Under the pieces are notes generated by a model. It was not told the DNA's origin. It did no database searches and saw only the letters and a program-made list of their open reading frames with translations. A program made the position numbers and the translations under genes. From the sequence record PQ374922.1: a stretch of DNA of 64,000 nucleotides, one strand, 5' to 3'. Positions 1 through 14,600 of this stretch are shown piece by piece. The stretch comes from a phage. Each line of letters begins with the position of its first letter. Position 1 is the first letter of the stretch.

Positions 1-3000
1 ATGGCTAATAAACCAACACAGCCTGTTTTCCCTCTCGGTCTGGTGGCTGAAGAGCAGTCTACTTTGGCTGGTGTCGTCAACACGGGTACGATTGAGCATG
101 GACCAGATGCTGTCCTGACTTTACCCGAGGGTAATGCCAGCGCAGGACTCCCGTCTTCCGTTCGCTACAATGCCGACTCCGACGAATTTGAGGGCTTCTA
201 TGAAAATGGTGGATGGTTGCCGCTGGGTGGCGGTGGTATCCGCTGGGAAGTCCTTCCGCATGCCTCTACGACAACGCTCACTGAAGGGCGAGGCTATCTC
301 ATTAATAATACCACAGGGGCATCTACAGTGGTTCTCCCTTCCCCTACGCGTATTGGGGATTCCGTTACTATTTGTGATGCTTATGGGAAATTTGCCACTT
401 ACCCATTGACCGTGTCTCCTTCTGGAAATAATTTGTATGGCTCCACTGAAGACATGGCTATAACAACTGATAACGTATCAGCAACGTTCACTTGGTCTGG
501 ACCTGAACAAGGTTGGATTATTACATCCGGCGTCGGTCTTGGCCAAGGTCGCGTCTACAGTCGTGAAATCTTTACAAAAATTTTGGCGTCTGAAACAAGT
601 ACTGTCGCTCTCAATACCCCACCAACAATCGTGGACGTGTATGCTGACGGAAAACGTCTTGCGGAATCCAAATATTCACTAGATGGGAATGTAATCACTT
701 TCAGCCCTTCTTTGCCAGCCAACACAGAACTTCAGGTGATTGAATATACTCCTATTCAATTGGGTAATGGCGGTGGTTCTAGTTCTTCTACGATTACCTG
801 GGTCTATAATGGGGGTTCAGCGATTGGCGGTGAAACCGAAATCACGTTGGACGTCGTTGTTGATGATGTTCCGGCCATTGATATAAACGGAAGTCGCCAG
901 TATAAAAATCTGGGATTCACATTCGATCCATTAACCAGTAAAATCACTCTTGCGCAAGAACTGGAACCAGAGGATGAAGTTGTTGTGATTATAAATGGGA
1001 CACCAAACATTTATAACCAAATCGATCGTTCTTTACAGGAAGTTGCTCGTGCTGCTAACGTTAAAAATAGTGAAGTAATTCTTAGCACTGATATCACTCA
1101 ATTCTTGAATGACAAGAAAGTTGTTTATGATGTTACCGAACAGAAGGCTTATGGCCTACCTTCTTTGCCAACTAACGTTTGTATTGGTTCAGTATCTAAT
1201 GGTCAGCTTACTTATAATCCAGGCAGCATTACCGTAGATTTGATTCCATTGCCTAACTCCGTCGAACTGTTAAGCAATAATTTGATGTCATCTACAGGGT
1301 CTAGCTTCGTTAAGCATGGGGATAAGACTGTAGGGGAAATCTTGGATACCTTATCCAGTGTTCAACTACACTACTCTTCCTTTGCCTCTCTTACGGAGTT
1401 ACATGACTATATCATTAACAATAACCTTACTAACGTGGATATTATTTTTGATAAGGTATTAACTTTAGGTCCAGGCTCTGGTGGGTTAGGAACTCTGTTT
1501 GTACTCAGTAACATGAAGCACCTTGGTATCCACAACCTGGTTATAGATGACACTCTCCTCTATTCTGGTTCGTTTGATTTAACCCGTGTATTCGACCTTG
1601 CTAACATAGGTAATTTATACATGGAGGTAGATGCTACCAGTACCCTGGAATATGTTGGTGATGATAAAAGGGGGCTAACCCCATTACGTTTAAATGGCTG
1701 CGATAATTTTACGTTTATTGGTAAAACTACACGCTGTTATCAAGGTTATGAATGTACTAATGTAAAAAATCTCCATGCTCGTAGTGTGAATAATGATACT
1801 CGCTATCCACATCTTCTTGGTAATGTTGGTACAGTTGATATCCACACAGTTAATAATGGTTGTCGTCGTGACTTCTTCCTGACGAATAATTGTGCTGGGG
1901 GGAAGATTACAGTTGATGCCGTGGATACACAGCAGGGTACACCAATCAAAATGTACTTCTATAATGGGAACATGGACAACCAAATAAGTAACCTGACAAT
2001 TAATTATAAGTACCGTAGCACAGGTCGTTACACACTTCCGTACCGAGTAGCACCAATATGGTTGGATTGGGGCTGGGACAGCACCATAACGGAGTCTATG
2101 GTTGCTGGGCTGATGCGTAACATAACCATCATTTATGATGTCGTCGGGGGGAATTGGGGGAGTGTTATCGGCACAACAAAGCTGATTGATGAGTCTGTAG
2201 CAGACAACAACCCACGTGGCTATGGCTATTCAAATATTGTGATCACCGGACGCATAGAATTGGGGGGTGGGGACTCCAATAATCACGCATGGTTCTTTAA
2301 CTTCAACTCTAATGATAACTGGGTATCAGGAGATACTATTAATGGGTTTATCTGTCGTGACCTGGTGGTCCGGAAGCTGAATGGTGGTGATGTATACGTC
2401 AACACCAATCAGCTTACAGGTGCAGTGACAAATTATGGAGGAGTTAAATTTGAAGGTGTTAGTGCACCAGAAGCTAAGTTAACAGCTACTGATTACAGTA
2501 AAGTAAAATTTGCTAATTGCACGTTTTCTGATTTTGCATCTTTAGGTGCAGCAACTGATTCAAGCAAATGTGCTACGGGTTCCTTGCTGTTTATTAAAGC
2601 TGCTGGAAACCCAGGAAAATTCAAACTTGGAACGGTTAGTACATATCGTAACGTGAGCCTGTGGACCGTTGATGTTGTCGCTAACTCCCCTCTCTCTGGG
2701 GTATCGTCGGCATGGCATGGGCGTTTACAGGGAACACTGGCGATGGCTACAACTCCAGCAGCAAGCACAATGGAAGGTTCAGTACAAAGCTCGTTCACAA
2801 AAGGAACAGCAGCTACGCCGACTATATCAGTCGATGCTAGTGGTAACGTGTTCCTTAACTTTGATGGATGGGACGCACTAGAGGCTAACGTGGCTGTAAA
2901 TGTTAAAATGCAGTATGACGAATACAGTGGCGGAGGCAACAAAACTGTACGTGGTATGTTAAGCAAAGCTAATGGTGGGTTTAGTCTGAACCTTAGTTAA
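1..3000 (+). CDS. Tailspike protein with long N-terminal extension, shared anchor module and beta-rich C-terminal receptor-binding region; may be 5'-truncated by window edge
   Basis: 999-aa ORF starting at window position 1; internal module SEVILSTDITQFLNDKKVVYDVTEQKAYGLPSLPTNV..QLTYNPGSITVDLIPLP is paralogous to modules in the ORFs at 6468 and 9357; GC-hairpin terminator follows. Confidence 0.8.
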   Translation: MANKPTQPVFPLGLVAEEQSTLAGVVNTGTIEHGPDAVLTLPEGNASAGLPSSVRYNADSDEFEGFYENGGWLPLGGGGIRWEVLPHASTTTLTEGRGYLINNTTGASTVVLPSPTRIGDSVTICDAYGKFATYPLTVSPSGNNLYGSTEDMAITTDNVSATFTWSGPEQGWIITSGVGLGQGRVYSREIFTKILASETSTVALNTPPTIVDVYADGKRLAESKYSLDGNVITFSPSLPANTELQVIEYTPIQLGNGGGSSSSTITWVYNGGSAIGGETEITLDVVVDDVPAIDINGSRQYKNLGFTFDPLTSKITLAQELEPEDEVVVIINGTPNIYNQIDRSLQEVARAANVKNSEVILSTDITQFLNDKKVVYDVTEQKAYGLPSLPTNVCIGSVSNGQLTYNPGSITVDLIPLPNSVELLSNNLMSSTGSSFVKHGDKTVGEILDTLSSVQLHYSSFASLTELHDYIINNNLTNVDIIFDKVLTLGPGSGGLGTLFVLSNMKHLGIHNLVIDDTLLYSGSFDLTRVFDLANIGNLYMEVDATSTLEYVGDDKRGLTPLRLNGCDNFTFIGKTTRCYQGYECTNVKNLHARSVNNDTRYPHLLGNVGTVDIHTVNNGCRRDFFLTNNCAGGKITVDAVDTQQGTPIKMYFYNGNMDNQISNLTINYKYRSTGRYTLPYRVAPIWLDWGWDSTITESMVAGLMRNITIIYDVVGGNWGSVIGTTKLIDESVADNNPRGYGYSNIVITGRIELGGGDSNNHAWFFNFNSNDNWVSGDTINGFICRDLVVRKLNGGDVYVNTNQLTGAVTNYGGVKFEGVSAPEAKLTATDYSKVKFANCTFSDFASLGAATDSSKCATGSLLFIKAAGNPGKFKLGTVSTYRNVSLWTVDVVANSPLSGVSSAWHGRLQGTLAMATTPAASTMEGSVQSSFTKGTAATPTISVDASGNVFLNFDGWDALEANVAVNVKMQYDEYSGGGNKTVRGMLSKANGGFSLNLS

Positions 3001-3004
3001 TAAA

Positions 3005-3030
3005 ATTCCCCTCTTCGGAGGGGATCTTGT
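3005..3030 (+). terminator. Rho-independent terminator-like hairpin (cccctc-ttcg-gagggg) followed by T-rich tract
   Basis: Perfect 6-bp GC stem with UUCG-type loop directly after the stop at 3000. Confidence 0.6.
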
Positions 3031-3063
3031 TATACCTTTGTTCATAAATTTGATTAGTTCAGA

Positions 3064-3074
3064 CTAAATACCCC
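3064..3074 (+). promoter_or_regulatory. Late-promoter-like motif CTAAATACCCC
   Basis: Recurring box about 30 nt upstream of late-gene ATGs; here followed by complementary TATGGGGTA near the RBS. Confidence 0.6.
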
Positions 3075-3103
3075 ATATTGGACATCCTTTATGGGGTATT
3101 ATC

Positions 3104-6100
3104 ATGATTTCTCAATTCAATCAACCACGCGGCTCCACTTCCATAGAAGTTAACAAACAATCTATCGCTCGAAATTTCGGTGTCAAAGAAGACGAAGTCG
3201 TTTATTTCACTGCTGGTATTGATCTCAGTGGATTTAAAGTAATTTATGATGAGTCTACCCAACGGGCCTATTCTCTTCCTTCAGGTATTGTTTCAGGAAC
3301 GACTGCGATAAGTCTGAACGGACAAGCCATCCTCACTCATTCCGCTGGTTCTGTTGACCTCGGAGAATTAGCCGTATCCCGTGAGGAATATGTTACATTG
3401 CCTGGTTCATTTGATACAGGTGTAACTGTTAATTGTAAGAATGAATTAGTTGTCTTTACCGAGGGCAAGTACCGCTGGGATGGTGAATTACCTAAAGAAG
3501 TTCCTGCTGGTTCGACTCCTGAATCGTCTGGCGGCATTGGTGATGGGAAATGGGTCGGTGTTGGGGATGTGGCACTGCGTGGACAGATTTCAGACCCCGA
3601 GGGTGCAACAAAATATCCTGAACTACAAATGGCTCGCTGGCGTGATAATGGCGATCCGCGTGGATGGGGTGTTAAAGGTGATGCTGTACATGATGATACA
3701 GCAGCATTAACGAGCGTATTAAACGACACACCGGTTGGACAAAAGATTAATGGCAATGGGAAGACATATAAGGTCACATCCCTGCCTGACATTAGTAGAT
3801 TCGTCAATACTCGTTTTGTATATGAACGTATTCCTGGTCAGCCGCTTTATTATGCCTCTGAAGAATTTGTTCAGGGTGAGCTGTTCAAAATAACGGACAC
3901 CCCTTATTACAATGCGTGGCCACAAGATAAAGCGTTCGTTTACGACGATGTTATTTACTGTCCGTTCATGGCTAGTGATAGACATGGGGTTAGCAGGCTG
4001 CATGTATCCTGGGTTCGTTCAGGGGATGACGGACAGACCTGGACAACCCCGGAGTGGTTAACCGACCTACATCCTGACTATCCGACAGTTAACTACCACT
4101 GCATGAGTATGGGGGTGATGCGTAATCGTCTCTTTGCGATGATTGAGACCCGTACATTGGCATCTAACGCACTGGTAACCTGTGAGTTGTGGGATCGCCC
4201 CATGTCCCGTAACTACCATCCGACAGGCGGTATCACTAAAGCCGCCAACCAGCCTGTGGCTGTAATTACTATCCCTGAACACGGTCTTTTTGCTGGGGAT
4301 TTTGTTAACTTCTCAAACTCTGGGGTGACTGGAGTTTCAGGGAATATGACTGTAACTTCAGTTATTGACCGCAACACTTTCACAGTTACCACGCCAAATC
4401 AACAGGCGTTTGACCAAAATAATTCTGCCAGCCGTTGGCATATGGGTACATCGTTCCATGAGTCGCCGTGGCGTAAAACCAGCCTTGGGTTAATCCCAAT
4501 GGTGACTGAAGTTCATAGTTTTACCGCCATCAATAATGATTCATTCATGATGGGGTATCACCAAGGTGATGTTGCTCCTCGTGAAGTTGGCATGTTGTAT
4601 TTCCCGGATGCGTTTAATAACCCGGGTTTATACCAAAAACGTCGTATTCCTGCTGATTATGAACCTGATGCGGCAGAGCCTTGCGTTAAATATTTTGATG
4701 GCGTTCTTTATGTCTTAACTCGTGGTACTCGTTCAGATCGTTTGGGGAGTTCGTTGCATCGTAGTCATGATTTGGGCATGACTTGGGAATCACTCAGATT
4801 TCCTAATAATGTTCACCACTCTACGTTGCCGTTCGCTAAAGTCGGTAATGAACTAATCATTTTCGCCACAGAGCGTGCTGATAACGAATGGGAAGCCAAT
4901 GTACCTGATCAACGATACTTTACTTCTTATCCACGAACGTTCTACACGCGAGTGAACCTAGACACCTGGAACCTGGATAATACTCAGTGGGTGAATATCA
5001 CTGACCAGATTTATCAGGGCGGTATTGTCAACTCTGGAGTCGGTGTTGGCTCAGTGGTTGTTAAGGATAGTTATATCTATTACATGTTCGGTGGGGAAGA
5101 CCATCTGAACCCCTGGACATATGGAGATAACTCAGCGAAAGACCCATTCAAATCAGATGGTCATCCCTCAGATTTGTATTGCTACAAAATGAAGATTGGC
5201 CCAGACAATCGTGTTTCCAGGGATTTCAGATATGGTGCTGTACCTGACAGAGCTGTTCCCGTGTTTTTTGATACGAATGGGGTTCGCACTGTCCCTGCGC
5301 CAATGGAATTTACAGGAGATTTGGGTTTAGGTCATGTGACCCTTAGGGCCAGCACCAGTAATAACATTCGCTCTGAAATGCTACTGGAAGGCGAGTATGG
5401 GTTTATTGGGAAATCTGTACCTACTAATAACCCAGCAGGACAGCGCACCATATTTTGCGGTGGAGAAGGAACCAGTTCTTCTACTGGTGCACAGATTACG
5501 CTTTACGGTGCGAATAACACAGCTTCTCGCAGGATAGTTTACAACGGAGCTGAGCACCTGTTCCAGACTGCTGATGTTAAGCCTTATAACGATAACGCTA
5601 TTGCTCTTGGTGGGCCCAGCAACCGTTTCACCACTGCATACCTCGGAAGCAACCCTATTGTTACTTCTAACGGAGAGAAGAAAACGGAGCCGGTAGTTTT
5701 TGATGATGCTTTCCTGGATGCCTGGGGTGACGTTCACTACATCATGTACCAGTGGTTAGATGCTGTTCAACTGAAAGGCAATGAAGCTCGTATTCACTTC
5801 GGGGTTATTGCTCAGCAAATTCGTGATGTATTCATTGCACATGGTCTGATGGACGAAAACAGTACGGATTGTCGTTATGCCGTTCTGTGCTATGACAAGT
5901 ATCCACGGATGACCGATATGGTATTTTCGCACAATGAAATCGTTGAACACACTGACGAGGAGGGTAATGTCACCACCACGGAAGAGCCTGTATTCACTGA
6001 GGTGGTTATTCACGAAGAGGGTGAGGAGTGGGGCGTGCGGCCTGACGGAATTTTCTTTGCTGAAGCTGCTTATCAGCGAAGAAAACTGGAAAGAATCGAA

Positions 6101-6130
6101 GCCAGACTTTCTGCTCTTGAACAGAAGTAA
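3104..6130 (+). CDS. Tailspike protein with sialidase-like beta-propeller (two Asp-box motifs) and C-terminal intramolecular chaperone-like domain
   Basis: 1008 aa; Asp-boxes SGDDGQTW (4019-4042) and SHDLGMTW (4763-4786); N-terminal anchor-like module; acidic C-terminal ~150 aa (about 5680-6130) resembling self-cleaving tail-fibre chaperone domains. Confidence 0.8.
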   Translation: MISQFNQPRGSTSIEVNKQSIARNFGVKEDEVVYFTAGIDLSGFKVIYDESTQRAYSLPSGIVSGTTAISLNGQAILTHSAGSVDLGELAVSREEYVTLPGSFDTGVTVNCKNELVVFTEGKYRWDGELPKEVPAGSTPESSGGIGDGKWVGVGDVALRGQISDPEGATKYPELQMARWRDNGDPRGWGVKGDAVHDDTAALTSVLNDTPVGQKINGNGKTYKVTSLPDISRFVNTRFVYERIPGQPLYYASEEFVQGELFKITDTPYYNAWPQDKAFVYDDVIYCPFMASDRHGVSRLHVSWVRSGDDGQTWTTPEWLTDLHPDYPTVNYHCMSMGVMRNRLFAMIETRTLASNALVTCELWDRPMSRNYHPTGGITKAANQPVAVITIPEHGLFAGDFVNFSNSGVTGVSGNMTVTSVIDRNTFTVTTPNQQAFDQNNSASRWHMGTSFHESPWRKTSLGLIPMVTEVHSFTAINNDSFMMGYHQGDVAPREVGMLYFPDAFNNPGLYQKRRIPADYEPDAAEPCVKYFDGVLYVLTRGTRSDRLGSSLHRSHDLGMTWESLRFPNNVHHSTLPFAKVGNELIIFATERADNEWEANVPDQRYFTSYPRTFYTRVNLDTWNLDNTQWVNITDQIYQGGIVNSGVGVGSVVVKDSYIYYMFGGEDHLNPWTYGDNSAKDPFKSDGHPSDLYCYKMKIGPDNRVSRDFRYGAVPDRAVPVFFDTNGVRTVPAPMEFTGDLGLGHVTLRASTSNNIRSEMLLEGEYGFIGKSVPTNNPAGQRTIFCGGEGTSSSTGAQITLYGANNTASRRIVYNGAEHLFQTADVKPYNDNAIALGGPSNRFTTAYLGSNPIVTSNGEKKTEPVVFDDAFLDAWGDVHYIMYQWLDAVQLKGNEARIHFGVIAQQIRDVFIAHGLMDENSTDCRYAVLCYDKYPRMTDMVFSHNEIVEHTDEEGNVTTTEEPVFTEVVIHEEGEEWGVRPDGIFFAEAAYQRRKLERIEARLSALEQK

Positions 6131-6135
6131 TAAAC

Positions 6136-6166
6136 AAAACCCCGCTTCGGCGGGGTTAGTTTTTAC
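6136..6166 (+). terminator. Rho-independent terminator (aaaccccgcttcggcggggtt + T-tract)
   Basis: 8-bp GC stem, UUCG loop, T-run; same hairpin sequence recurs near 24378 and 31115. Confidence 0.7.
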
Positions 6167-6172
6167 TTATTA

Positions 6173-6430
6173 ATAATACTTTTTATATAGAGTTTACTGT
6201 TTGCATTACCCTTACTGATACAGCAGTTAAGGTAATAGTCTGACCTGATATGTTGAACATACCTAACTGTATACCATCCACCATGAAAGGGTCTGCTGAA
6301 CCTAGTGTGTAAGTAGCTAAAACGTTATCCCTGTTGGCTATATCTACACCCTGAACTTTGGTACTGGCATCTGAACCTACTATTGTAGTTCCATTGGTTC
6401 TCCTTGTTATACCTTTGTTCATAAATTTAT
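6173..6430. repeat. Copy A of ~240-bp intergenic direct repeat
   Basis: About 85% identical to 11305-11525 by eye; carries an intact 79-codon minus-strand ORF. Confidence 0.6.
6183..6422 (-). CDS. Small hypothetical protein (79 aa) encoded inside the repeat element; possibly a relic
   Basis: Intact ORF in copy A only; no convincing RBS; second copy is frameshifted. Confidence 0.25.
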   Translation of the reverse strand: MNKGITRRTNGTTIVGSDASTKVQGVDIANRDNVLATYTLGSADPFMVDGIQLGMFNISGQTITLTAVSVRVMQTVNSI

Positions 6431-6439
6431 TAGTTCAGA

Positions 6440-6450
6440 CTAAATACCCC
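6440..6450 (+). promoter_or_regulatory. Late-promoter-like motif CTAAATACCCC
   Basis: Same box and downstream TATGGGGTA complement as at 3064; leader nearly identical to that of the 3104 gene. Confidence 0.6.
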
Positions 6451-6467
6451 ATATTAGCAAATCCTCT

Positions 6468-8912
6468 ATGGGGTATCTTCAAATGACCAGAAACGTCGAG
6501 AGCATCTTTGGAGCGGTCGTAACAGCTCCGCACCAGATTCCATACACTTACACAGCAACGGGCGGAGAGAAGTTTATCTCCCTCCCTTTCTACCCTGTCA
6601 CGGGTATAGTCACAATCAACGGTGGTATGCAAGTTCCGTTAGACAACTTTGAAATCGATGGAAATACGTTGAATCTCGGGTGTGCATTATCCAAAGGTGA
6701 CGTTGTGTTCTGTCTGTTTGATAAGATTCTGTCTCCAGAAGATTATAAAACCGGGATTCGAATCTATAAGTTTCAGGCTATAGGAGGTGAAACCGAGTTC
6801 ACTCCTGATTACACATCTTATGGAGTCCAATCTCTTTATATCGGTGGTGAGTACAAAACACCCGAAATTGAATATTCCTATGACAGCACGACAGGGAAAG
6901 TGACTTTACAAACTGCGCTGACTGCAGGCGTTTGGGTAGTCGCTGAAATGTCTGTTAAACAACCGAATATCAGTCCGTTGTTTGACCGAAGTATTCAAGA
7001 AATCGCCCGTTCAGCTAATGTAAAAGATTCTGAAGTAATTCTTAGTACTGACACTACGCAATTATTGAATGGTAAAAAGATTGTCTACTCTGTTAGTGAG
7101 CAGAAGTCATATGGTTTACCTGTATTACCAGCGAATGTATATATTCAGTCTGTTAATGCAGGTAAGTTAACATATTCCCCTGGCGAAATTGTTGTTGATC
7201 TACTTCCTGTACCATCTTCAGTAAGAGATGAGCTGACTGCATATAAAGCGGATTTAGCTAGTGATTCCGGTGCAAGTAAGATTGGTATTAAGATTTCTTT
7301 GCCTGGGACAATTTCTCGTACATTGCAGGAACGGGCAGAAGATAGTGTTAGTGTCAAAGATTTTGGTGCAGTGCCTAATCTTACAACAGATAGTACTTAC
7401 GCCATTCAAGCTGCAATTGATGCGACTCCGTCTGGAGGTACTTTAGGTTTCTATGGCGGACCCTATAGGTTTGGTACTGTTACCGTGGACAAACCTATTA
7501 CACTAGTTGGAGATGCAGACTTGCAGTTTGAGTGTATTCGTATCAAAACAAGTAAGTTTCATAGTTTCTTGACAGGGACACTTACTGCTGCGAGATATGA
7601 CAACGCATGTCGTGCATTTCAAATATTGGCCTATGAAGACGGTAGAGACTATGAGGACATCAAGGTACATGGTGCACGTTTCGAGGGTTTCTTCTATAAC
7701 ACAGACTTCCGAGGTCGCTCTTACGATGCGTCAGAAAGCGATCCTACTAACAGAGTAGTTCGTGACACCTCTATTATGGGCTGTACTTCAGTTCAGCCTA
7801 AAGATGGTAAAGATAGAGGCCACTTTCAACACGTAGGTGTGACCAATGCCAAGTGCATAGGTAACTCGACGTATGGTGGCAAGAATGCTACTTCTTATAA
7901 CTTCATTAATGGTAACGGCTCTTTGGTGGTTATTGGTAACTATGACCATGACAATGAATATGGATCCTTAGAGATTGAGAATAACCAGATAAGCTACGGT
8001 GTTGTTACTGGTAATATCTTCCATAAACAGCTATGGATAGATGATACTAGCAACATTAACGTAATAGGTAACACCTGCACGGATAGGATTTTCATTACTG
8101 CACAATCTAACAACTCTGAGAACGTATCAGTAGTAGGAAACAATGTACCTCGCATCTACGTCAGTAAGTTTGGTCAAAGCCCAACAGGTCGTCACCGTAA
8201 CTTGACTATACGTGGCAACCATATCACTGGCAAGGATGTTCCTAACTGTATATTCTTAGATGATTCTATTGATTCCGCTTCTATTGAGGGTAATGATTGT
8301 TATGGTGTGTCTGGTGTTAGAGGTATAGCCATTACTCGCCATTCCGGTGCTAACTATACGGTGCGTCATAATAACTTACATGGCACTAACTTACTCTTTA
8401 GTGGTTCAGGCGGCAAAGTTTATAGTTATGACAACTTTGATGTTGGGGTTGATGAATCCCCTGTTATAAACAGAACTGACGCAATGCACATTGACAACCT
8501 TCTTCGTGTAAATGAAGAATACCTTGATTTGCCAGGAAAGTACCTATACAAATCTAAGTATGCAGGAGAAATTGCACAAGGTGGGTCAGTTACTATTGAG
8601 TTACCTGTATCAACAAGTGGTACTTTGTCTTTCCGTGGTCTTAGTCTGTGGGTTCTTATCCGTAACGTTTCTACAGGAAACTTTTCTTCCTATCGTGTCG
8701 ATGGAAGGCATGCAGTATTTGGCTCCTCTGTTACTGTTAGCTTTGGTGATAAATATGGAGCAGTAGGAGTAAATACTGGCGATATTACTGTTAGTGATGA
8801 TTCCTCCACAGCTAATCTTATTCGTATCAAGGTAATCAATGGGCACGTAGATCAAACAATGCAAGTGACAGTCATACCAGAGGTAACGAGCAGACTTGGG
8901 ACTGAAGAGTGA
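6468..8912 (+). CDS. Tailspike protein, pectate-lyase-like beta-helix type (true start may be ATG at 6483)
   Basis: 814 aa; anchor module SEVILSTDTTQLLNGKKIVYSVSEQKSYGLPVLPANV; VKDFGAV..TDSTYAIQAAIDA beta-helix entry motif. Confidence 0.8.
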   Translation: MGYLQMTRNVESIFGAVVTAPHQIPYTYTATGGEKFISLPFYPVTGIVTINGGMQVPLDNFEIDGNTLNLGCALSKGDVVFCLFDKILSPEDYKTGIRIYKFQAIGGETEFTPDYTSYGVQSLYIGGEYKTPEIEYSYDSTTGKVTLQTALTAGVWVVAEMSVKQPNISPLFDRSIQEIARSANVKDSEVILSTDTTQLLNGKKIVYSVSEQKSYGLPVLPANVYIQSVNAGKLTYSPGEIVVDLLPVPSSVRDELTAYKADLASDSGASKIGIKISLPGTISRTLQERAEDSVSVKDFGAVPNLTTDSTYAIQAAIDATPSGGTLGFYGGPYRFGTVTVDKPITLVGDADLQFECIRIKTSKFHSFLTGTLTAARYDNACRAFQILAYEDGRDYEDIKVHGARFEGFFYNTDFRGRSYDASESDPTNRVVRDTSIMGCTSVQPKDGKDRGHFQHVGVTNAKCIGNSTYGGKNATSYNFINGNGSLVVIGNYDHDNEYGSLEIENNQISYGVVTGNIFHKQLWIDDTSNINVIGNTCTDRIFITAQSNNSENVSVVGNNVPRIYVSKFGQSPTGRHRNLTIRGNHITGKDVPNCIFLDDSIDSASIEGNDCYGVSGVRGIAITRHSGANYTVRHNNLHGTNLLFSGSGGKVYSYDNFDVGVDESPVINRTDAMHIDNLLRVNEEYLDLPGKYLYKSKYAGEIAQGGSVTIELPVSTSGTLSFRGLSLWVLIRNVSTGNFSSYRVDGRHAVFGSSVTVSFGDKYGAVGVNTGDITVSDDSSTANLIRIKVINGHVDQTMQVTVIPEVTSRLGTEE

Positions 8913-9061
8913 TGCCATTAATCAAGTCAGTTAAGCAAAGTGCTGTACGCCGGAACGCAGAAGAACTCATCAAGGAAGAGTGTGACCCTAAGCAGGCTTA
9001 CGCCATTGCTAAGGATGTACAACGTCGTGCAATGAAGAAACCTTCTGTATCTTCTGCGTAA
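8912..9061 (+). CDS. Small hypothetical ORF (49 aa) translationally coupled to the upstream tailspike gene
   Basis: ATG overlaps the upstream stop (TGATG); basic helical-looking product; below the ORF-track size cut-off. Confidence 0.2.
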   Translation: MPLIKSVKQSAVRRNAEELIKEECDPKQAYAIAKDVQRRAMKKPSVSSA

Positions 9062-9356
9062 GCAGGTTAATATCTTAGTGTACACAAGGGCAGACCTATG
9101 ATAGCTCACAGCACACCTATGAGTGCCGCTCTGGAGTCTATGACTTGTTCCCTGACTATCTAGGTTTGCTCTTAGTGTATTCCAAGTATTAATATGAAAG
9201 GTTGGTGTAACATTGTAGGAGGGAATGGATGGTTATTGTATCTAGTAAGAGGAAAAGTCTAGATAAGATAATGCATACTGGCCTACGCTACCGTGTACTT
9301 ACCTAGTTATAAGACCCCGCTGAAGCGAGGTCTTCTAGAAAAACAAAGAGGTTGCT

Positions 9357-11264
9357 ATGAACGAGATGTTCTCTCAAGGTGGTAAAGGCTCTACGGGTAT
9401 TCTTACCAATATACAAGCCATTGCTCGTGCATGTAACGTAGCAGAAGGTAAAGTTATTCTCAGTACGAATACTAATACATTGCTAGATGATAAGACTGTA
9501 CTCTTCGATCGTAATGCTAAGAAGATATGGACTTTACCTACTCTCCCCTCCGGGGCAACCATTGCTAATGTAAATGGTGACCAATTAACCTATAACCCAG
9601 GAGGTATTACCGTTAGTCTACTTCCTGCACCAAATGACATTGCTGTACGAGTTAATGAAGCCATTACAGCAGTATATGACGAACTGGCTTCTAACACTGG
9701 CTCTAGTAAGGTTGGTCACATTACCGGACGTGTTGGTGAAGTTGCTCGCACTGTACAGGCTGCATTAGGTGATTGGGTAAGTCTGAAGGACTTTGGTGCA
9801 GTAGGTGATGGGATTACCGATGACACTGATGCTATTCAGGCTATGGTTGCTTGGGTAAACTCCCGAGCCAAATACTCTGCACCCATTTCTGTTATCTTTC
9901 CTGCTGGTCATTATAAGTACACTACTGGTATAAACTTTACACGCCCTGTAGCAGTATATGGTTTTCAGTCAGCTACTCTGGACTACTCAGGTACAGGTGC
10001 AGCAATGTACTTAGGTGACCCAACTCCAGAAGATGCACCTACTGCTGATAACTTTTATCAGTCTGAATACACTATAGAGGGTCTGCGATTCACTGGTGGT
10101 GTGCAAGCAGGTTTCGGTATTTTCATTAAGTCCTTCGTATTCACACCTAGAATCAGATACTGCATCTTTATGGACTATGGTAACTCTGCAACCTATGACA
10201 TCTATTCTCAGTATGAGAACTGGGATGGAATCATTGAGTGTTGTGAGAAACATACCTACTTCAGTACAGTAGCAACTGGTAGTTTCATAGCTCTCCTTGG
10301 CAAGAAGACTGATGGTAGTGCCTATGATGGTGGTAACTCACGATTTACCATACGTGACTGCTCAATGGGTGCATACGATAACCAAGACTTAGGTTACTTT
10401 GCATATATCAACTCTACATTGTGCCGTGTAATCGGAGGTAACGCACACCACTGTACCGGAGGTATTCTCCTTGGACCAAATGCTCACGGTGCTATTATTG
10501 ATGGATACTACACAGAGGTGAGTACAGCTGTACGACCTTGGATGGTTTCAGTGCTTAGTGACAAGACTAATCCTGCAAACTACCTTTTCCCACAGAGTGT
10601 ACGAATCCGTAACTGTTACATCAACATGCATAGCGAGAAGATAGGGAATAACGGTCGCATCATCGGAATGATGGATGGTAACGTTAAGTTACGTGATTGG
10701 GTAGTAGAGGATATTGCTGTTAGTACATTTGCTAATGGGCAGGTTCTGATTGATATGAACAACCTTGATGAACAGGTTAATAACACCTTTGCGCGAATTA
10801 ATCCTGTATTCATCCCTTATAACTCAGGTGCGGGTGCTAAATTCACTGTTGTCAATAACCCACCATTATCACCAAATGCATGGACATCCTCTGATGTTAT
10901 AGAAGGTACATGGACCCCTTCTGTAGGTGGTAATGCCACTTACAACATTCAGAAGGGTAAGTACCGTAAGGAAGGTCGTAAGGTAACAGTAGAGTTTGAT
11001 ATTCATATCAATACTATTGGTACAGGAAATCAGTCAGCAATTTTAGGTCTGCCTTTTGCGTGTGGTGATTCCACAGGTACAGGTAGTGTAAGCTACTATG
11101 CTGAACTTGCCTTACCTGTTTATGGTTTGTATATCCGAGTAGATGCACTAAGCTCCGATATTACAATCTCTGCATCCACAGCCTCAGCAGCGGGTATCTC
11201 TGGTTCTGTTGCAGCACTGGGGAATAATTCACGAATCATGGGTACATTGGTTTACTTTGTATAA
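9357..11264 (+). CDS. Tailspike protein, pectate-lyase-like beta-helix type
   Basis: 635 aa; N-terminal anchor module KVILSTNTNTLLDDKTVLFDRNAKKIWTLPTLP..QLTYNPGGITVSLLPAP; LKDFGAVGDGITDDTDAIQAMVAW motif; RBS aaagagg. Confidence 0.75.
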   Translation: MNEMFSQGGKGSTGILTNIQAIARACNVAEGKVILSTNTNTLLDDKTVLFDRNAKKIWTLPTLPSGATIANVNGDQLTYNPGGITVSLLPAPNDIAVRVNEAITAVYDELASNTGSSKVGHITGRVGEVARTVQAALGDWVSLKDFGAVGDGITDDTDAIQAMVAWVNSRAKYSAPISVIFPAGHYKYTTGINFTRPVAVYGFQSATLDYSGTGAAMYLGDPTPEDAPTADNFYQSEYTIEGLRFTGGVQAGFGIFIKSFVFTPRIRYCIFMDYGNSATYDIYSQYENWDGIIECCEKHTYFSTVATGSFIALLGKKTDGSAYDGGNSRFTIRDCSMGAYDNQDLGYFAYINSTLCRVIGGNAHHCTGGILLGPNAHGAIIDGYYTEVSTAVRPWMVSVLSDKTNPANYLFPQSVRIRNCYINMHSEKIGNNGRIIGMMDGNVKLRDWVVEDIAVSTFANGQVLIDMNNLDEQVNNTFARINPVFIPYNSGAGAKFTVVNNPPLSPNAWTSSDVIEGTWTPSVGGNATYNIQKGKYRKEGRKVTVEFDIHINTIGTGNQSAILGLPFACGDSTGTGSVSYYAELALPVYGLYIRVDALSSDITISASTASAAGISGSVAALGNNSRIMGTLVYFV

Positions 11265-11280
11265 CGCGTGACATTACTAA

Positions 11281-11310
11281 AAGCCCCCAATTAAGGGGGC
11301 TTTTCTTATA
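11281..11310 (+). terminator. Rho-independent terminator (aagcccccaattaagggggctttt)
   Basis: GC-rich stem plus T-tract after stop at 11264. Confidence 0.65.
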
Positions 11311-11525
11311 TAGAGTTTACCGTTTGCATTACCCTAATTGATACTGCTGTCAGGGTGATTACTTGCCCAGATATATTAAACATACCTAGTTGAATACCAT
11401 CCACCATGAAAAGGGTCAGTTGAACCAAGCGTGTAAGTAGCTAATACATTATCCCTGTTAGCAATGTCCGTTTTATACTAGCGTCTGAACCTACTACTGT
11501 AGTTCCATTGGTTCATCCCATTCTC
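11305..11525. repeat. Copy B of ~240-bp intergenic direct repeat (degenerate; internal ORF disrupted)
   Basis: Alignable by eye to 6173-6430; extra A in the homopolymer breaks the ORF found in copy A. Confidence 0.55.
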
Positions 11526-11635
11526 TTGCTGTACCACCACAAATAGCAGAGGTCTTGAATCCATGACCATAACCACAGAAAGATAATCAAAGACCCTTCG
11601 GACTTATTTCTTTCTATTCCTCGGTTGGTTGTATA

Positions 11636-11646
11636 CTAAATATCTC
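11636..11646 (+). promoter_or_regulatory. Late-promoter-like motif variant CTAAATATCTC
   Basis: About 30 nt upstream of ATG 11677. Confidence 0.45.
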
Positions 11647-11676
11647 TATAATGGCACCTATCGATGGAGCATCAAA

Positions 11677-14600
11677 ATGCAAGAAATGAACCTCAACCGC
11701 CGCCCATATTGGGATGACTGGAATCCAGAGAAGCGTTTTTCGCGCATCCTATTCCGCCCGGCACCTATCAAAGTTCAGACGCGTGAACTGAACCAGATGC
11801 AGACCATCTTCCAGGATCAACTGGAGAAACTTGGCAACCATCTGTTCAAAGACGGATCAATGGTTATCCCCGGCGGCCTGACGATCACCAATACTGCTGT
11901 GTCCATGAAGTTCACTCTGGCTGGTGGTAGTGAGTTCACTGATCTGGAAGGTATCTCCGAACTCTATGTTCTGGGCAAGGACAACAATGCGAAAGCACGC
12001 GTCCTGTCCTTGGAACGTTATCCAGCTGAGCCGGATACAATGTATGCCATCTTAGAGATGACTGAGAGTGGTAGTTCAGACGGTTTCGAAGCTGGCGACA
12101 ACCTATACTTCAACACCTATGACGTGAACGATAACTTCATCCGTGTCGGCTATGGTGTGGCCGATACTGTTGGTGGTTCGATTGTTGCTCGCATGACAAA
12201 GGGTGTTTATTTCGTTCGTGGTATGTTCCTGGATGTTGAACCAGCCACTCTGATCGTAGACAACGCATCGAACTCTACATCTCACCGCATTGGCTTCAAA
12301 GTTACAGAAACAATCGTGACCGAAGCAGAAGATGAAAGTCTGTTCTCCAATGCTCAGGGTACTCCGAACTCTAAAGCCCCTGGTGCGCATCGCCTGCGCG
12401 TCGACCTCGTGTTGTCTCGCTACGGTTATGATGAAGAAGTGGCCGACTTCGTTGAACTGGCGAAGGTGAAAGACGGTCGTGTTCAGTCCATGGTCACCCA
12501 GTCAACGTACAACATCCTCGAAGACGCCATGGCTCAGCGTACCTATGAGACCAACGGGGATTACAACGTCTCTACTCACCAGATCGACCTGCGCGAACAT
12601 CTGAAACAGAACAACAACGGCGGCGTTTACACTCCGGCCGAAGGTGGCGACGAAAGCAAATTCGTGGCGGTTATGAAGCCAGGGATATCCTACGTTCGTG
12701 GTCGTCGTATCGAAAACCTCGGCGAAGAGCTGGTCATAATTGACAAAGCCCGTGACACTGATATCCTGAACAACAACCCTGTGGCTGTTTCGACTGGCAA
12801 CTATCTGGTGTCCAAGAACTCCAAAGGGGTTCCGGTTGTCTCCCGCACAATCCGCTACAAGTTCCTGAACGCATCCAGCGATGTGCAGGCCACCGCCCTG
12901 CTGATTTCGGCAGAGCGCTCTGGTGCTGAATTCCGTCTGTATATGCGCGACCTGGTTGTGACTGGGGACATGGGCACGGTGACCAAAGTCGCTTATGAAG
13001 AAAGCGGCACAACCATGTTCTCTTGTGAACTGGAGTCCAATCAGTTCAGCCAGAGTTCAGCAATTGACCTGATCTTCCCTCTGCCTGTATTTGGTGTGAA
13101 GACTCTAGCACCTACAGGCACCATCGACATCAACTACACTGTCCTGCGGTCAAACAAGATCACGTTGAACGCCGCTGGTGCAGGCTCAATTTCTGCTCCT
13201 CTGGGTTACAGCTTCAGCCCTGAGTTTTCACTGTATTCCGCAGCGAAAGCAGATGGCACTGCAGCTCAGTTTGATATCTCTTCGGGACTGTCCCTGGCTG
13301 GTACTCCGGTTGGTTCAGCACTGCAGATTTCCCTGGGCGCGGGGTACGCCAACCAGTCTATCAACCTGTTGGCATTGATGGTCCGCACCACAGCGACGAT
13401 CAAGACCAAGACTGTTACCGAAGTCACCGAGACTGTGACGTTTACCGCGGCAGCCAGCGCACAACTTGGGAACCATGATGGTTACAAGCTGATCAGCGTG
13501 AAGAACGCAAATGGCGCTGACGTCACCTCTAACTTCACTCTGGACGGCGGTCAGCGTGATGCTGCATACTACCTTTCTAACCTCATATCGTCCACAGGAG
13601 CCATTTCAGGGACGTTCACGGTGGTGTATCAGTATTTCGCTCACAGCTCTGGTGATTTCTTCACAGCGGACTCCTATTCGTCCATCAACTACCCAGACAT
13701 CCCGAACTATGTTTCATCCAGTTCTGGTACTGTGTATGGGTTGGCCGACAGTCTGGACTTCCGTCCCAAGATCACCAGCGGAGCGTCTGACACGGACATG
13801 GTTCGCCCGAACACCGCGATCATCCTAGATGCAGAGTACTATCTGCCTCGTATTGATGCTGTGTATCTGGCAGACAACGGTGTGTTCAACGTTGCTCGTG
13901 GTGTGAGTTCCAACAACCTGGCTTCCCCTGCGATCCCAGACAACGGCATGCGCCTGTATGAATTGATGATCCCACCATACACGGCCAACATTGACGACAT
14001 CCAGATTCGTACTATCGACAACCGCCGCTACACGATGCGCGATATCGGTAAACTGGAGACCCGTATCTCCAATGTCGAATATTACACCTCACTGTCTCAG
14101 CTGGAATCCTCGGCGATGTCACAACAGGTGTTCGATCCAATTACTGGCAACCCGCGCTTCAAGAACGGTATCGCAGCAGACCCGTTCAAAGACTTCCGTC
14201 TGATCGACGATTTGTCTGCAGACTGGGTGGGTTCAATCGACACTGACAATGGTCGCCTGCGTCCGTTTGTTCAGCAGAACGCGATTGACCTGACGCCAGT
14301 CGGTTGGAACAACGTTCAGGATGGCATGGTTGTATGCAACTACACCCGTGAGATCTCTGTCCGCCAGGACTATGCAACCACGACCATCAACGTGAACCCG
14401 TATGCGGTGTTCAACTGGGAAGGTTTCTTGAAGCTGAACCCAACTACTGATTACTGGTTTGAGAACTACTATGTTACTCCACGTGTGATCAACGAAACGA
14501 TCAACACCCGTGGTGCGATCAAAGAAGGTTCTGTGTATGGCACATGGCGTACTGTGTCCGTGTCTGAGCGTGTGTGGGAACCGCATGGTGCAGGTGGTGT

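Follow-up and report, generated by a model that had tools for sequence, protein, structure and literature searches.

Positions 1-11264 of the analysed stretch (64,000 nucleotides of PQ374922.1, hereafter the window) hold the tsp4-tsp3-tsp2-tsp1 tailspike cluster of an Agtrevirus-like Ackermannviridae myophage of E. coli. The four spikes very probably form a branched complex of the CBA120 type, with the module that they share acting as the head domain and, in its coding sequence, as the homology for cargo exchange. The four-tailspike architecture is itself textbook for Vi1-like phages and adds little, and the repeated module is a domain characterised before, the D1/TD1 head, which has been solved in all four CBA120 tailspikes and in G7C gp63.1.

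The cluster comprises four long, co-oriented open reading frames on the plus strand (1-3000, 3104-6130, 6468/6483-8912 and 9357-11264), which bears out the four tandem tailspike genes proposed in an earlier sequence-only reading. A fifth gene follows them:

1..3000, plus strand: tsp4 (ORF1), 999 aa; AD-XD1 (aa 1-~181), XD2 (~182-253), XD3 (~254-335), D1 (341-421), no D2, neck and receptor-binding body
3104..6130, plus strand: tsp3 (ORF2), 1008 aa; D1, D2, K1-type endosialidase (aa 191-854) and C-terminal intramolecular chaperone (aa 858-915)
6483..8912, plus strand: tsp2 (ORF3), 809 aa from 6483 (longest ORF from 6468); XD2-XD3 (aa 1-166), D1, no D2, neck and β-helix body
9357..11264, plus strand: tsp1 (ORF4), 635 aa; TSP1-type peptide (aa 1-24), D1, no D2, helical neck (~93-113) and pectate-lyase-like β-helix from ~aa 140
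11677..16515, plus strand: VriC-like virion protein, 1612 aa, with DUF4815; closes the cluster, as orf209 does in CBA120

The domain limits of TSP4 were taken from the CBA120 constructs N181, N253 and N335. When our ORF calls were set against the annotation of the Kuttervirus CBA120, the order of the tsp genes and the VriC-like gene downstream corresponded to orf213-212-211-210-209. All four ORFs match tail-spike PHROG families (phrog_34575, ‘tail spike protein’, for the TSP4 body and phrog_20231 for that of TSP2), and each is predicted to end in a polysaccharide-degrading body, on the strength of these families, of endosialidase domains in ORF2 (a protein with Pfam matches to PF18668, PF12218, PF12217, PF12195, PF12219 and PF13884) and of a PF12708 β-helix start in ORF3 (aa 294-352) and ORF4 (aa 140-212). 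The ATG at position 1 is the true start of tsp4, because the protein (MANKPTQP...) aligns from residue 1 with CBA120 TSP4. For tsp2 the probable start is the second ATG, at 6483 (MTRNVE...), in line with the CBA120 and YX22 annotations.

A related module is indeed present in all four proteins. The six pairwise BLASTP comparisons were all significant (E from 5.5e-6 to 1.9e-39), and HMM boundaries gave a length of ~80 aa instead of the ~70 aa first estimated. The module copies, together with the D2 domain that follows one of them, are located as follows:

1021..1263, plus strand: D1/TD1 of TSP4, aa 341-421, internal, subtype B (pairwise BLASTP, alignment and HMM)
3143..3379, plus strand: D1 of TSP3, aa 14-92, TSP1/3/4 subtype (HMM)
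3371..3568, plus strand: D2 of TSP3, aa ~90-155
6981..7223, plus strand: D1 of TSP2, aa 167-247 counted from 6483, subtype B (HMM)
9399..9641, plus strand: D1 of TSP1, aa 15-95, subtype B (HMM)

As originally described, the module is N-terminal in the ORFs at 3104 and 9357 (starting at residue 14-15) and internal in those at 1 (residue 341) and 6468 (residue 167-172). The similarity noted between ORF1 and ORF3 at the nucleotide level was recovered as 73% identity, ungapped, between 1050-1150 and 7010-7110, and as 72% identity over 150 nt, in register, between 1036-1185 and 6996-7145 (E = 7e-20). The four-way alignment contains 12 invariant columns and is not of low complexity. A profile built from the four copies matched 392 representative protein clusters among 1.84 billion (E <= 1e-3), and in the best 150 of these the module starts only at residues ~15, ~170, ~290-305 and ~342. 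An AlphaFold2 model of ORF4 residues 1-140 reached a pLDDT of 81-88 over residues 21-90, this monomer model being unreliable outside residues ~15-105. Searching with the model for similar folds (E <= 1e-3) returned only D1 domains, namely those of CBA120 TSP1, TSP2, TSP3 and TSP4, of G7C gp63.1 and of Shigella phage B2 Gp48, with an rmsd of 1.6-1.9 Å over 75-81 alignment columns to the TSP1/3/4 and gp63.1 type. The comparison with CBA120 tailspikes suggested earlier thus came out positive, the ORF4 D1 model superposing on the D1 of all four. Chance or low-complexity similarity is ruled out by the pairwise E-values, the invariant columns, the 392 clusters and the shared solved fold.

D1/TD1 is a trimeric head domain consisting of an N-terminal helix followed by a small β-sandwich. 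Its presence in all four TSPs has been published, at residues 1-96, 157-257 and 344-421, nearly the positions found in the window (PMC8432352). By sequence, the D1 copies fall into a TSP1/3/4 subtype (A) and a TSP2 subtype (B), in agreement with the divergent D1 reported for CBA120 TSP2, which has the fold common to the other D1s at ~35% identity (PMC7506556). Three of the four copies in the window (TSP4, TSP2 and TSP1) are of subtype B without D2. The D2 domain was found only in ORF2, both by PF18668 and by our own D2 HMM, whereas CBA120 carries D1 and D2 on TSP1, TSP3 and TSP4 and D1 alone on TSP2. D1-only variants of TSP4 and TSP1 also occur among database representatives. D2 after D1 is not needed for membership in a CBA120-type TSP complex.

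The platform domains point to the way in which the spikes are joined. Residues 1-338 of ORF1 match the AD-XD1-XD2-XD3 structure of CBA120 TSP4-N (7REJ/7RFO; E = 5e-196, 88.5% identity). Residues 6-254 of ORF3 match residues 1-250 of CBA120 TSP2 (6W4Q; E = 4e-129), beginning directly with XD2-XD3, without an anchor domain; this N-terminus is 86.7% identical to CBA120 TSP2-N, and its XD3 resembles that of TSP4. Residues 1-165 of ORF2 align with the D1-D2 head of CBA120 TSP3 (6NW9/5W6F; E = 5e-84), the D1 being 94% identical, and TSP1 agrees with CBA120 TSP1 at each of the first 18 positions. The baseplate anchor, AD with XD1, is present only in ORF1 among the four.

These assignments bear on the proposal that two spikes dock onto the baseplate and carry the other two. 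Branching, with one long spike carrying one short spike, very probably holds; two spikes on the baseplate does not, given that only ORF1 has AD-XD1. A version in which ORF1 and ORF3 dock independently, each bearing one short spike, would suit the gp10-like XD2-XD3 in the N-terminal extensions of both long proteins, and its pairing of one long with one short spike also fits the published model (PMC11414711). We consider it improbable and already disfavoured, since ORF3 begins at XD2, and CBA120 TSP2 binds TSP4 through XD2 and not the baseplate (Chao 2022, PMC8825819; Sorensen 2024, PMC11414711). That binding, to TSP4-N, has a Kd of ~0.1 uM and is lost when XD2 of TSP2 is deleted (PMC8825819). 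In the published model the virion anchor belongs to TSP4 alone, whose first ~80 residues make the attachment to the baseplate (PMC8825819, PMC11414711).

The module itself had been read as an anchor, and this part of the interpretation is overturned: D1 is a head domain, which would dock onto XD3 in the short spikes and which follows the protein's own XD3 in the long ones. If it were instead a generic head-binding domain like that of the P22 tailspike, with four independent spikes attached straight to the tail, its N-terminal place before a helical neck in two proteins would be as in P22. Such an arrangement is very hard to credit: the module is preceded by platform domains of 340 residues in ORF1 and 166 in ORF3, and in CBA120 there is no association among TSP1, TSP2 and TSP3 unless TSP4-N is present, TSP1 requiring XD3 of TSP4 (PMC8825819).

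The CBA120-type assembly remains our preferred reading, and its scheme is transferred from CBA120, the platform domains of which are 87-89% identical to those of the window. TSP4 (ORF1) would attach to the baseplate via its N-terminal anchor domain, and TSP2 (ORF3) would bind TSP4, XD2 against XD2. TSP1 (ORF4) would insert its N-terminal D1 head into XD3 of TSP4, and TSP3 (ORF2) its D1-D2 head into XD3 of TSP2, the latter step following formation of the TSP2:TSP4 complex. The internal D1 of TSP4 and TSP2, following their own XD3, would connect the platform with the neck and enzymatic body beyond it. The outcome would be one branched particle bearing four depolymerases, one of them a K1 endosialidase, which probably recognise different host surface polysaccharides. 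The contacts are those of the CBA120 analytical ultracentrifugation data and model, in which TSP1 D1 binds TSP4 XD3, XD2 of TSP2 binds TSP4, and the TSP2:TSP4 complex receives the TSP3 head (PMC8825819, PMC11414711).

The heads differ from those tested in CBA120. The D1 of TSP1 is 43% identical to the D1 of CBA120 TSP2 and 99% to that of St11Ph5 gp63.1. Speaking against a transfer from CBA120, it is only 27% identical to the tested D1 of CBA120 TSP1, and subtype-B D1-only heads occur on three spikes, versus TSP2 alone in CBA120 and YX22. The net charge of the TSP1 head is ~0, compared with +1 to +2 in the CBA120 and YX22 heads, so the proposed charge complementarity to XD3 of TSP4 (-9) is weaker. 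All four receptor-binding bodies also differ from those of CBA120, whose TSP3 is an O77 glycosidase where that of the window is a K1 endosialidase.

YX22, RPN242 and AV101 are Agtrevirus-like phages (Ackermannviridae, Aglimvirinae), and the backbone of the window is 98-99% identical to YX22 and RPN242. No record in a collection of 50,697 phages covers at least 80% of positions 1-11264. The window shares with YX22 the TSP4 N-terminal part, the entire endosialidase TSP3, the TSP2 N-terminal part and an intergenic gene remnant; it differs in the bodies of TSP4, TSP2 and TSP1, and YX22 has A-type D1-D2 heads on TSP4 and TSP1. Homology of tsp4 to YX22 stops at nt 1069, inside D1, and the TSP4 body is 85.6% identical in nucleotides to Ag3 orf212. 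From 3008 to 7174, a segment that includes the whole of tsp3, identity to YX22 is 95.4% (96.3% over 3008-7054 by megablast). Within tsp3, the endosialidase part shares ~91% identity with its counterpart in the Gamaleyavirus UE-S5a and ~82% with that of K1F. Three further features lie in tsp2 and downstream of it:

6996..11334, plus strand: block 97.35% identical over 4339 nt to the Gamaleyavirus St11Ph5, an N4-like podovirus; takes in the D1-to-stop part of gp66, the intergenic region containing a small ORF, the complete gp63.1 and a further 70 nt
7041..7100, plus strand: crossover zone inside D1 of tsp2, YX22-type (Agtrevirus) upstream and St11Ph5-type downstream, located by an informative-site walk and by BLASTN limits (3008-7174 against YX22; 6996-11334 against St11Ph5)
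8909..9061, plus strand: 50-aa ORF with a GTG start, overlapping the tsp2 stop; full-length match to phrog_2423 (E = 7e-21)

The breakpoints at nt 1069 in ORF1, 7041-7100 in ORF3 and 9428 in ORF4 all lie within the first third of D1. Because they fall there, the D1 coding sequence, chiefly its first ~20 codons, is the shared homology for swapping receptor-binding cargo. The best 15 of the 67 records that match the ORF3 and ORF4 bodies include no Ackermannviridae, and a tally of all 67 by host name gave no typical Ackermannviridae host names except Escherichia and three Salmonella entries. The 50-aa ORF, annotated in St11Ph5, belongs to a conserved small family travelling with tailspike cassettes, and its segment is ~88-92% identical in K1E/K1-5-like Vectrevirus phages, where it lies beside their spikes.

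In G7C-like Gamaleyavirus (Schitoviridae), the same logic is found in the pair gp66/gp63.1, a long XD2-XD3-D1 spike carrying a D1-headed short spike, with the TSP1 N-terminal peptide on gp63.1. A complex of this type has been solved by cryo-EM, Gp48-Gp49 of Shigella phage B2 (9D84; PMC11654681). The entries 9D80-9D84 are tail proteins of Shigella phages B2/Moo19: the description in the fold search identifies 9D84, and the protein names and sizes given in PMC11654681 identify the rest. In St11Ph5 gp66, residues 1 to ~300 comprise the podoviral tail attachment and an XD2-XD3 of its own; the window lacks this part, ORF3 carrying the Ackermannviridae XD2-XD3 in its place. The Gamaleyavirus system has two spikes instead of four and no TSP4-type anchor. 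Since the gp66 homology begins at D1 (6996) and the backbone is Ackermannviridae, the window appears to hold gp66/gp63.1-derived cargo but is not a member of the Gamaleyavirus two-spike system.

GC content was considered as a marker of the direction of transfer. The tsp cluster has 42-47% GC and the backbone 49-52%; St11Ph5 has 42.6% and Kuttervirus genomes ~45%. GC thus cannot tell the sources apart and was rejected for this purpose.

Traces of podoviral DNA also adjoin two of the four spikes, as remnants of one gene, listed here together with a conserved upstream element:

3026..3098, plus strand: conserved element upstream of tsp3, separated from its start by 5 nt; contains an 11-bp hairpin (AUACCCCAUAU...AUAUGGGGUAU) and recurs at 6403-6476
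6183..6422, minus strand: 79-aa ORF, remnant of the C-terminal third of a convergent podoviral gene of 208-209 aa
11302..11535, minus strand: second, frameshifted copy of the remnant, downstream of tsp1

Residues 6-78 of the 79-aa ORF match positions 136-207 of phrog_17779 (208 positions), and its first five codons derive from the repeated upstream element. The region 6136-6408 is 83.5% identical in nucleotides to UE-S5a, across UES5a013. The second copy is a direct repeat of 6180-6400 (81-89% identity), is 80.9% identical in nucleotides to UE-S5a, and retains only a 40-aa ORF. The records that contain the N-terminal two thirds of the phrog_17779 gene are all 41-76 kb long, none of them of Ackermannviridae size. 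An intact small gene at 6183-6422 was rejected as the default in view of the partial match to the C-terminal third, the borrowed first codons and the frameshifted second copy.

The position of the breakpoints raises the question of which part of the head specifies docking. The address could be a position-specific stretch of ~25 residues at the very start of the protein (the N-terminal peptide and the first helix, with Q-x-I/V-A-R), the remaining D1 being interchangeable trimerising cargo and a recombination arm. This refines the CBA120-type explanation and does not exclude it. All three breakpoints fall just after this stretch. In ORF4 and St11Ph5 gp63.1 the first 18 residues are exactly those of the TSP1 type and a subtype-B D1 follows, and the first 24 residues of ORF4 are identical to YX22 at 23 positions. 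The TSP4 N-terminal parts of the window and YX22 are 98.8% identical, yet TSP1 is of subtype B in the former and A in the latter; likewise, gp66-N of St11Ph5 and UE-S5a is 95.7% identical, yet gp63.1 is of subtype B and A, respectively. An address in the first ~25 residues is suggested because nearly identical platforms take either D1 subtype. In KP32-type Klebsiella podophages, a 29-aa N-terminal peptide of RBP2 docks onto a gp10-like branching domain (PMC13352976). On the other hand, removal of 13 residues from the start of the CBA120 TSP1 head did not prevent its binding to TSP4-N335, making the extreme N-terminus dispensable in vitro (PMC8825819), and we regard a peptide address, taken by itself, as possible but on balance doubtful. 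KP32-type phages share the logic of a primary receptor-binding protein with a T4 gp10-like branching domain onto which a secondary one docks by a conserved N-terminal element (PMC11414711, PMC13352976); their docking element is a peptide of ~29 aa and not a folded D1, and the likeness noted here is one of logic.

A wider combined reading strikes us as a serious candidate that falls somewhat short of probable. The first ~20 codons of D1 would be a universal splice point and the decayed podoviral 3' fragment the right arm, two-spike cassettes would cross between N4-like podoviruses and Ackermannviridae, and the choice of XD3 by a short spike would be set by its first ~25 residues instead of by the D1 body. 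The mobile cassette would begin at the D1 of the long spike, include the small ORF and finish with the complete short spike, and in the window the transfer would have gone from podovirus to myovirus. Such natural chimeras, here a K1 endosialidase on a TSP3 head and a gp66/gp63.1 pair grafted onto Agtrevirus platforms at the D1 start, are of practical value, as they mark where tailspike cargo can probably be swapped without breaking the complex, provided that this phage, with its four spikes, is viable. If the address is indeed the first ~25 residues, new spikes could be placed according to a simple design rule.

RNA genes and regulatory elements were also sought. No tRNAs were found within the window, and an Rfam scan of 1-12000 returned no known RNA family. 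A sigma-70 promoter scan gave 17 sites against 26 expected from shuffled sequence, fewer than chance and uninformative on the promoters of these late genes. Terminator-like hairpins were located at two positions:

3007..3024, no strand assigned: GC hairpin downstream of tsp4
6138..6157, no strand assigned: bidirectional hairpin after tsp3

The upstream element of tsp3 recurs as a direct repeat (3026-3079 and 6403-6455, 94-100% identity), and its two copies have fold z-scores of -3.8 and -2.3. The same element was found before orf211 and orf212 of CBA120.

Four long ORFs open the window, and the next gene downstream encodes a 1612-1628-aa DUF4815 protein. The gene order matches the transcription order in the Kuttervirus CBA120, namely orf213 (TSP4), orf212 (TSP3), orf211 (TSP2), orf210 (TSP1) and orf209, and ORF1 to ORF4 were therefore assigned to TSP4, TSP3, TSP2 and TSP1, respectively. 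Outside the spike cluster, the window contains terminase, sheath, portal and capsid genes and is 96-99% identical to the Agtrevirus-like Ackermannviridae YX22, RPN242, LHE287 and AV101.

Window 1-11264, plus strand: four long ORFs of 999, 1008, 814 and 635 aa (ORF calling)
ORF1 aa 341-421; ORF3 aa 167-247 (from 6483); ORF4 aa 15-95; ORF2 aa 14-92: limits of the shared module (HMM)

The related module that the sequence-only reading had noticed in the four tailspike ORFs stands well above chance. One module was aligned in all six BLASTP pairs (E 5.5e-6 to 1.9e-39), with normal composition and 12 invariant columns in the four-way alignment. The similarity between ORF1 and ORF3 extends into the domain before the module (residues 274-435 versus 104-270, 51% identity by BLASTP). 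The nucleotide similarity reported between their modules is real and in register, amounting to 72% between window 1036-1185 and 6996-7145 (E 7e-20) and to 73% over the range named in that reading. A profile built from the four copies retrieved 392 representative clusters (E <= 1e-3) among 1.84 billion proteins. In the best 150 of these 392, the module starts at ~15 (28), ~170 (28), ~290-305 (82) or ~342 (9) and at no other position, corresponding to short spikes, TSP2-like, podoviral gp66-like and TSP4-like proteins, respectively.

The same reading took the module for an anchor, which was not borne out. From matches of all four ORFs to solved structures, we identify it as the D1 (TD1) head domain. 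ORF1 residues 1-338 match CBA120 TSP4-N (7REJ/7RFO: anchor domain, XD1, XD2 and XD3; E 5e-196), ORF3 residues 6-254 match residues 1-250 of full-length CBA120 TSP2 (6W4Q; E 4e-129), and ORF2 residues 1-165 match CBA120 TSP3 (6NW9/5W6F; E 5e-84), with further matches to TSP1 (4OJ5), TSP4dN (5W6H) and G7C gp63.1 (4QNL). The ORF4 N-terminus matches 6W4Q, 4OJ5 and 4QNL. As an independent test of the fold, ORF4 residues 1-140 were modelled and the model was searched against the PDB. It comprises a helix (13-25), six strands and a neck helix (93-113), with a pLDDT of 81-88 over residues 21-90. At E <= 1e-3 it retrieved D1 domains alone (18/18 matches: CBA120 TSP1-4, G7C gp63.1 and Shigella phage B2 Gp48), superposing on D1 of the TSP1/3/4 and gp63.1 type with an rmsd of 1.6-1.9 Å over 75-81 columns, and the module copies thus share a fold.

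The module positions in the window are those published for TD1 (1-96, 157-257 and 344-421; Sorensen et al. 2021, PMC8432352). According to Chao et al. 2022 (PMC8825819), TSP4 is organized as AD-XD1-XD2-XD3-D1-D2-neck-body, TSP2 as XD2-XD3-D1-neck-body, and TSP1 and TSP3 as D1-D2-neck-body. In their ultracentrifugation experiments, the TSP1 head bound TSP4 XD3, TSP2 bound TSP4 via its own XD2, and TSP3 required a preformed TSP2:TSP4 complex. In the model of Sorensen et al. 2024 (PMC11414711), XD3 of TSP4 and TSP2 are the partners of TSP1 and TSP3 TD1; all four TSPs carry TD domains, and only TSP4 carries the virion anchor. The branched complex proposed earlier is therefore right in kind, but not in docking two spikes onto the baseplate. 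The spike system of the window is a new combination of cargo on a thoroughly characterised architecture.

D1 occurs in two subtypes, which share the fold and split at ~35% versus ~70% identity (Greenfield et al. 2020, PMC7506556). TSP1, TSP3 and TSP4 of CBA120 and YX22 have subtype A ('VVYF...LVHSAGSVDLG'), with D2 behind it; their TSP2 and podoviral gp66 have subtype B ('VILSTD...LTYNPG'), without D2. In the window, TSP4, TSP2 and TSP1 carry subtype B without D2, and TSP3 alone carries subtype A with D2. This pattern is unusual compared with CBA120 and YX22 but not unique, as several representative clusters have a D1 of subtype B, either at the TSP4 position or N-terminally.

Recombination breakpoints are concentrated at the beginning of D1. 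Homology with YX22 stops at nt 1069 in ORF1 and 9428 in ORF4. Informative sites in ORF3 are exclusively YX22-type up to 7041, mixed over 7045-7097, and nearly all of the type of the N4-like podovirus St11Ph5 from 7099 on (one YX22-type site, 7218). These natural examples support the published idea of TD domains as recombination sites (PMC11414711, PMC8432352).

Window 6996-11334 is 97.35% identical to St11Ph5, a phage of an O5ab UPEC strain, over 4339 nt. The block spans the long spike gp66 from D1 to its stop codon, an intergenic small ORF and the entire short spike gp63.1. The receptor-binding body of ORF3 (7349-9095) shares 98% nucleotide identity with St11Ph5 gp66 and 91% with the Vectrevirus T205P5 spike, so that a myovirus and two podoviruses, one N4-like and one SP6/K1E-like, have the same body. 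None of the 15 best matches to the ORF3 and ORF4 bodies was an Ackermannviridae record, and no record in a 50,697-phage collection covered at least 80% of the whole spike cluster.

8909-9061, plus strand: 50-aa ORF with a GTG start, overlapping the tsp2 stop; full-length match to phrog_2423 (unknown function)
6183-6422, minus strand: gene remnant after tsp3, reading as a 79-aa reverse ORF
11302-11535, minus strand: gene remnant after tsp1, frameshifted
3026-3098 and 6403-6476, immediately 5' of the start codons of tsp3 and tsp2: ~54-nt element and hairpin of 10-11 bp (AUACCCCAUA...UAUGGGGUAU)

The phrog_2423 ORF seems to travel with tailspike cassettes, since it lies between both spikes in St11Ph5 and beside the spikes in K1E/K1-5-like Vectrevirus.

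The TSP3 endosialidase body (3638-6141), C-terminal intramolecular chaperone included, shares ~91% identity with the endosialidase found at the gp66 position in Gamaleyavirus UE-S5a and its relatives, and ~82% with K1F gp17. By this similarity, E. coli with a K1 capsule is the expected target, as it is for YX22, a phage obtained on an APEC strain.

A ~215-nt repeat occurs twice, once in the intergenic region that follows tsp3 and once in that following tsp1. It is the 3' third, in decayed form, of a convergent gene that encodes 208-209 aa in Gamaleyavirus-like podoviruses (phrog_17779; UE-S5a UES5a013); the 79-aa reverse ORF is fortuitous. The N-terminal two thirds of this gene occur in 35 records, and those listed are all 41-76 kb, none being Ackermannviridae-sized, which argues for a podoviral origin of the flanks and probably of the adjoining spike cargo. 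This suggests that spike cassettes moved from podoviruses to myoviruses along with their flank.

Near-identical platforms accept short spikes of either subtype. TSP4-N is 98.8% identical between our phage and YX22, whose TSP1 are of subtype B and A, respectively; gp66-N is 95.7% identical between St11Ph5 and UE-S5a, whose gp63.1 are of subtype B and A. As the short spikes of all four phages share their first ~24 residues, we infer that the N-terminal peptide and first helix hold the position-specific address. A 29-aa docking peptide in KP32-type phages is a precedent (PMC13352976). Two caveats apply: CBA120 TSP1 retains binding after loss of 13 N-terminal residues (PMC8825819), and the ORF4 head carries less positive charge than that of CBA120 TSP1. 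Only three points go slightly beyond the literature consulted: such an address, the junctions at the D1 start, and the podoviral cassette of two spikes, near-identical and accompanied by a gene remnant.

The ATG at window position 1 is the genuine ORF1 start, as the alignment with solved CBA120 TSP4-N begins at residue 1. In ORF3, the second ATG (6483, MTRNVE...) is the most likely start codon, in agreement with CBA120 and YX22. For the VriC-like DUF4815 gene, the longest ORF starts with TTG at 11629, and the annotated start, per YX22 alignment, is the ATG at 11677 (MQEMNLNRRPYWDD...). By composition, the tailspike cluster is foreign to the Agtrevirus backbone, with a GC content of 42-47% (1-11600) versus 49-52% in the rest of the window (11677-64000).

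The 54-nt element had no Rfam match. It could serve as a late promoter combined with a regulatory or processing structure in the 5'-UTR, and the ribosome-binding site may lie within the G-rich 3' arm of the hairpin. Element and hairpin recur ahead of CBA120 orf211 and orf212.
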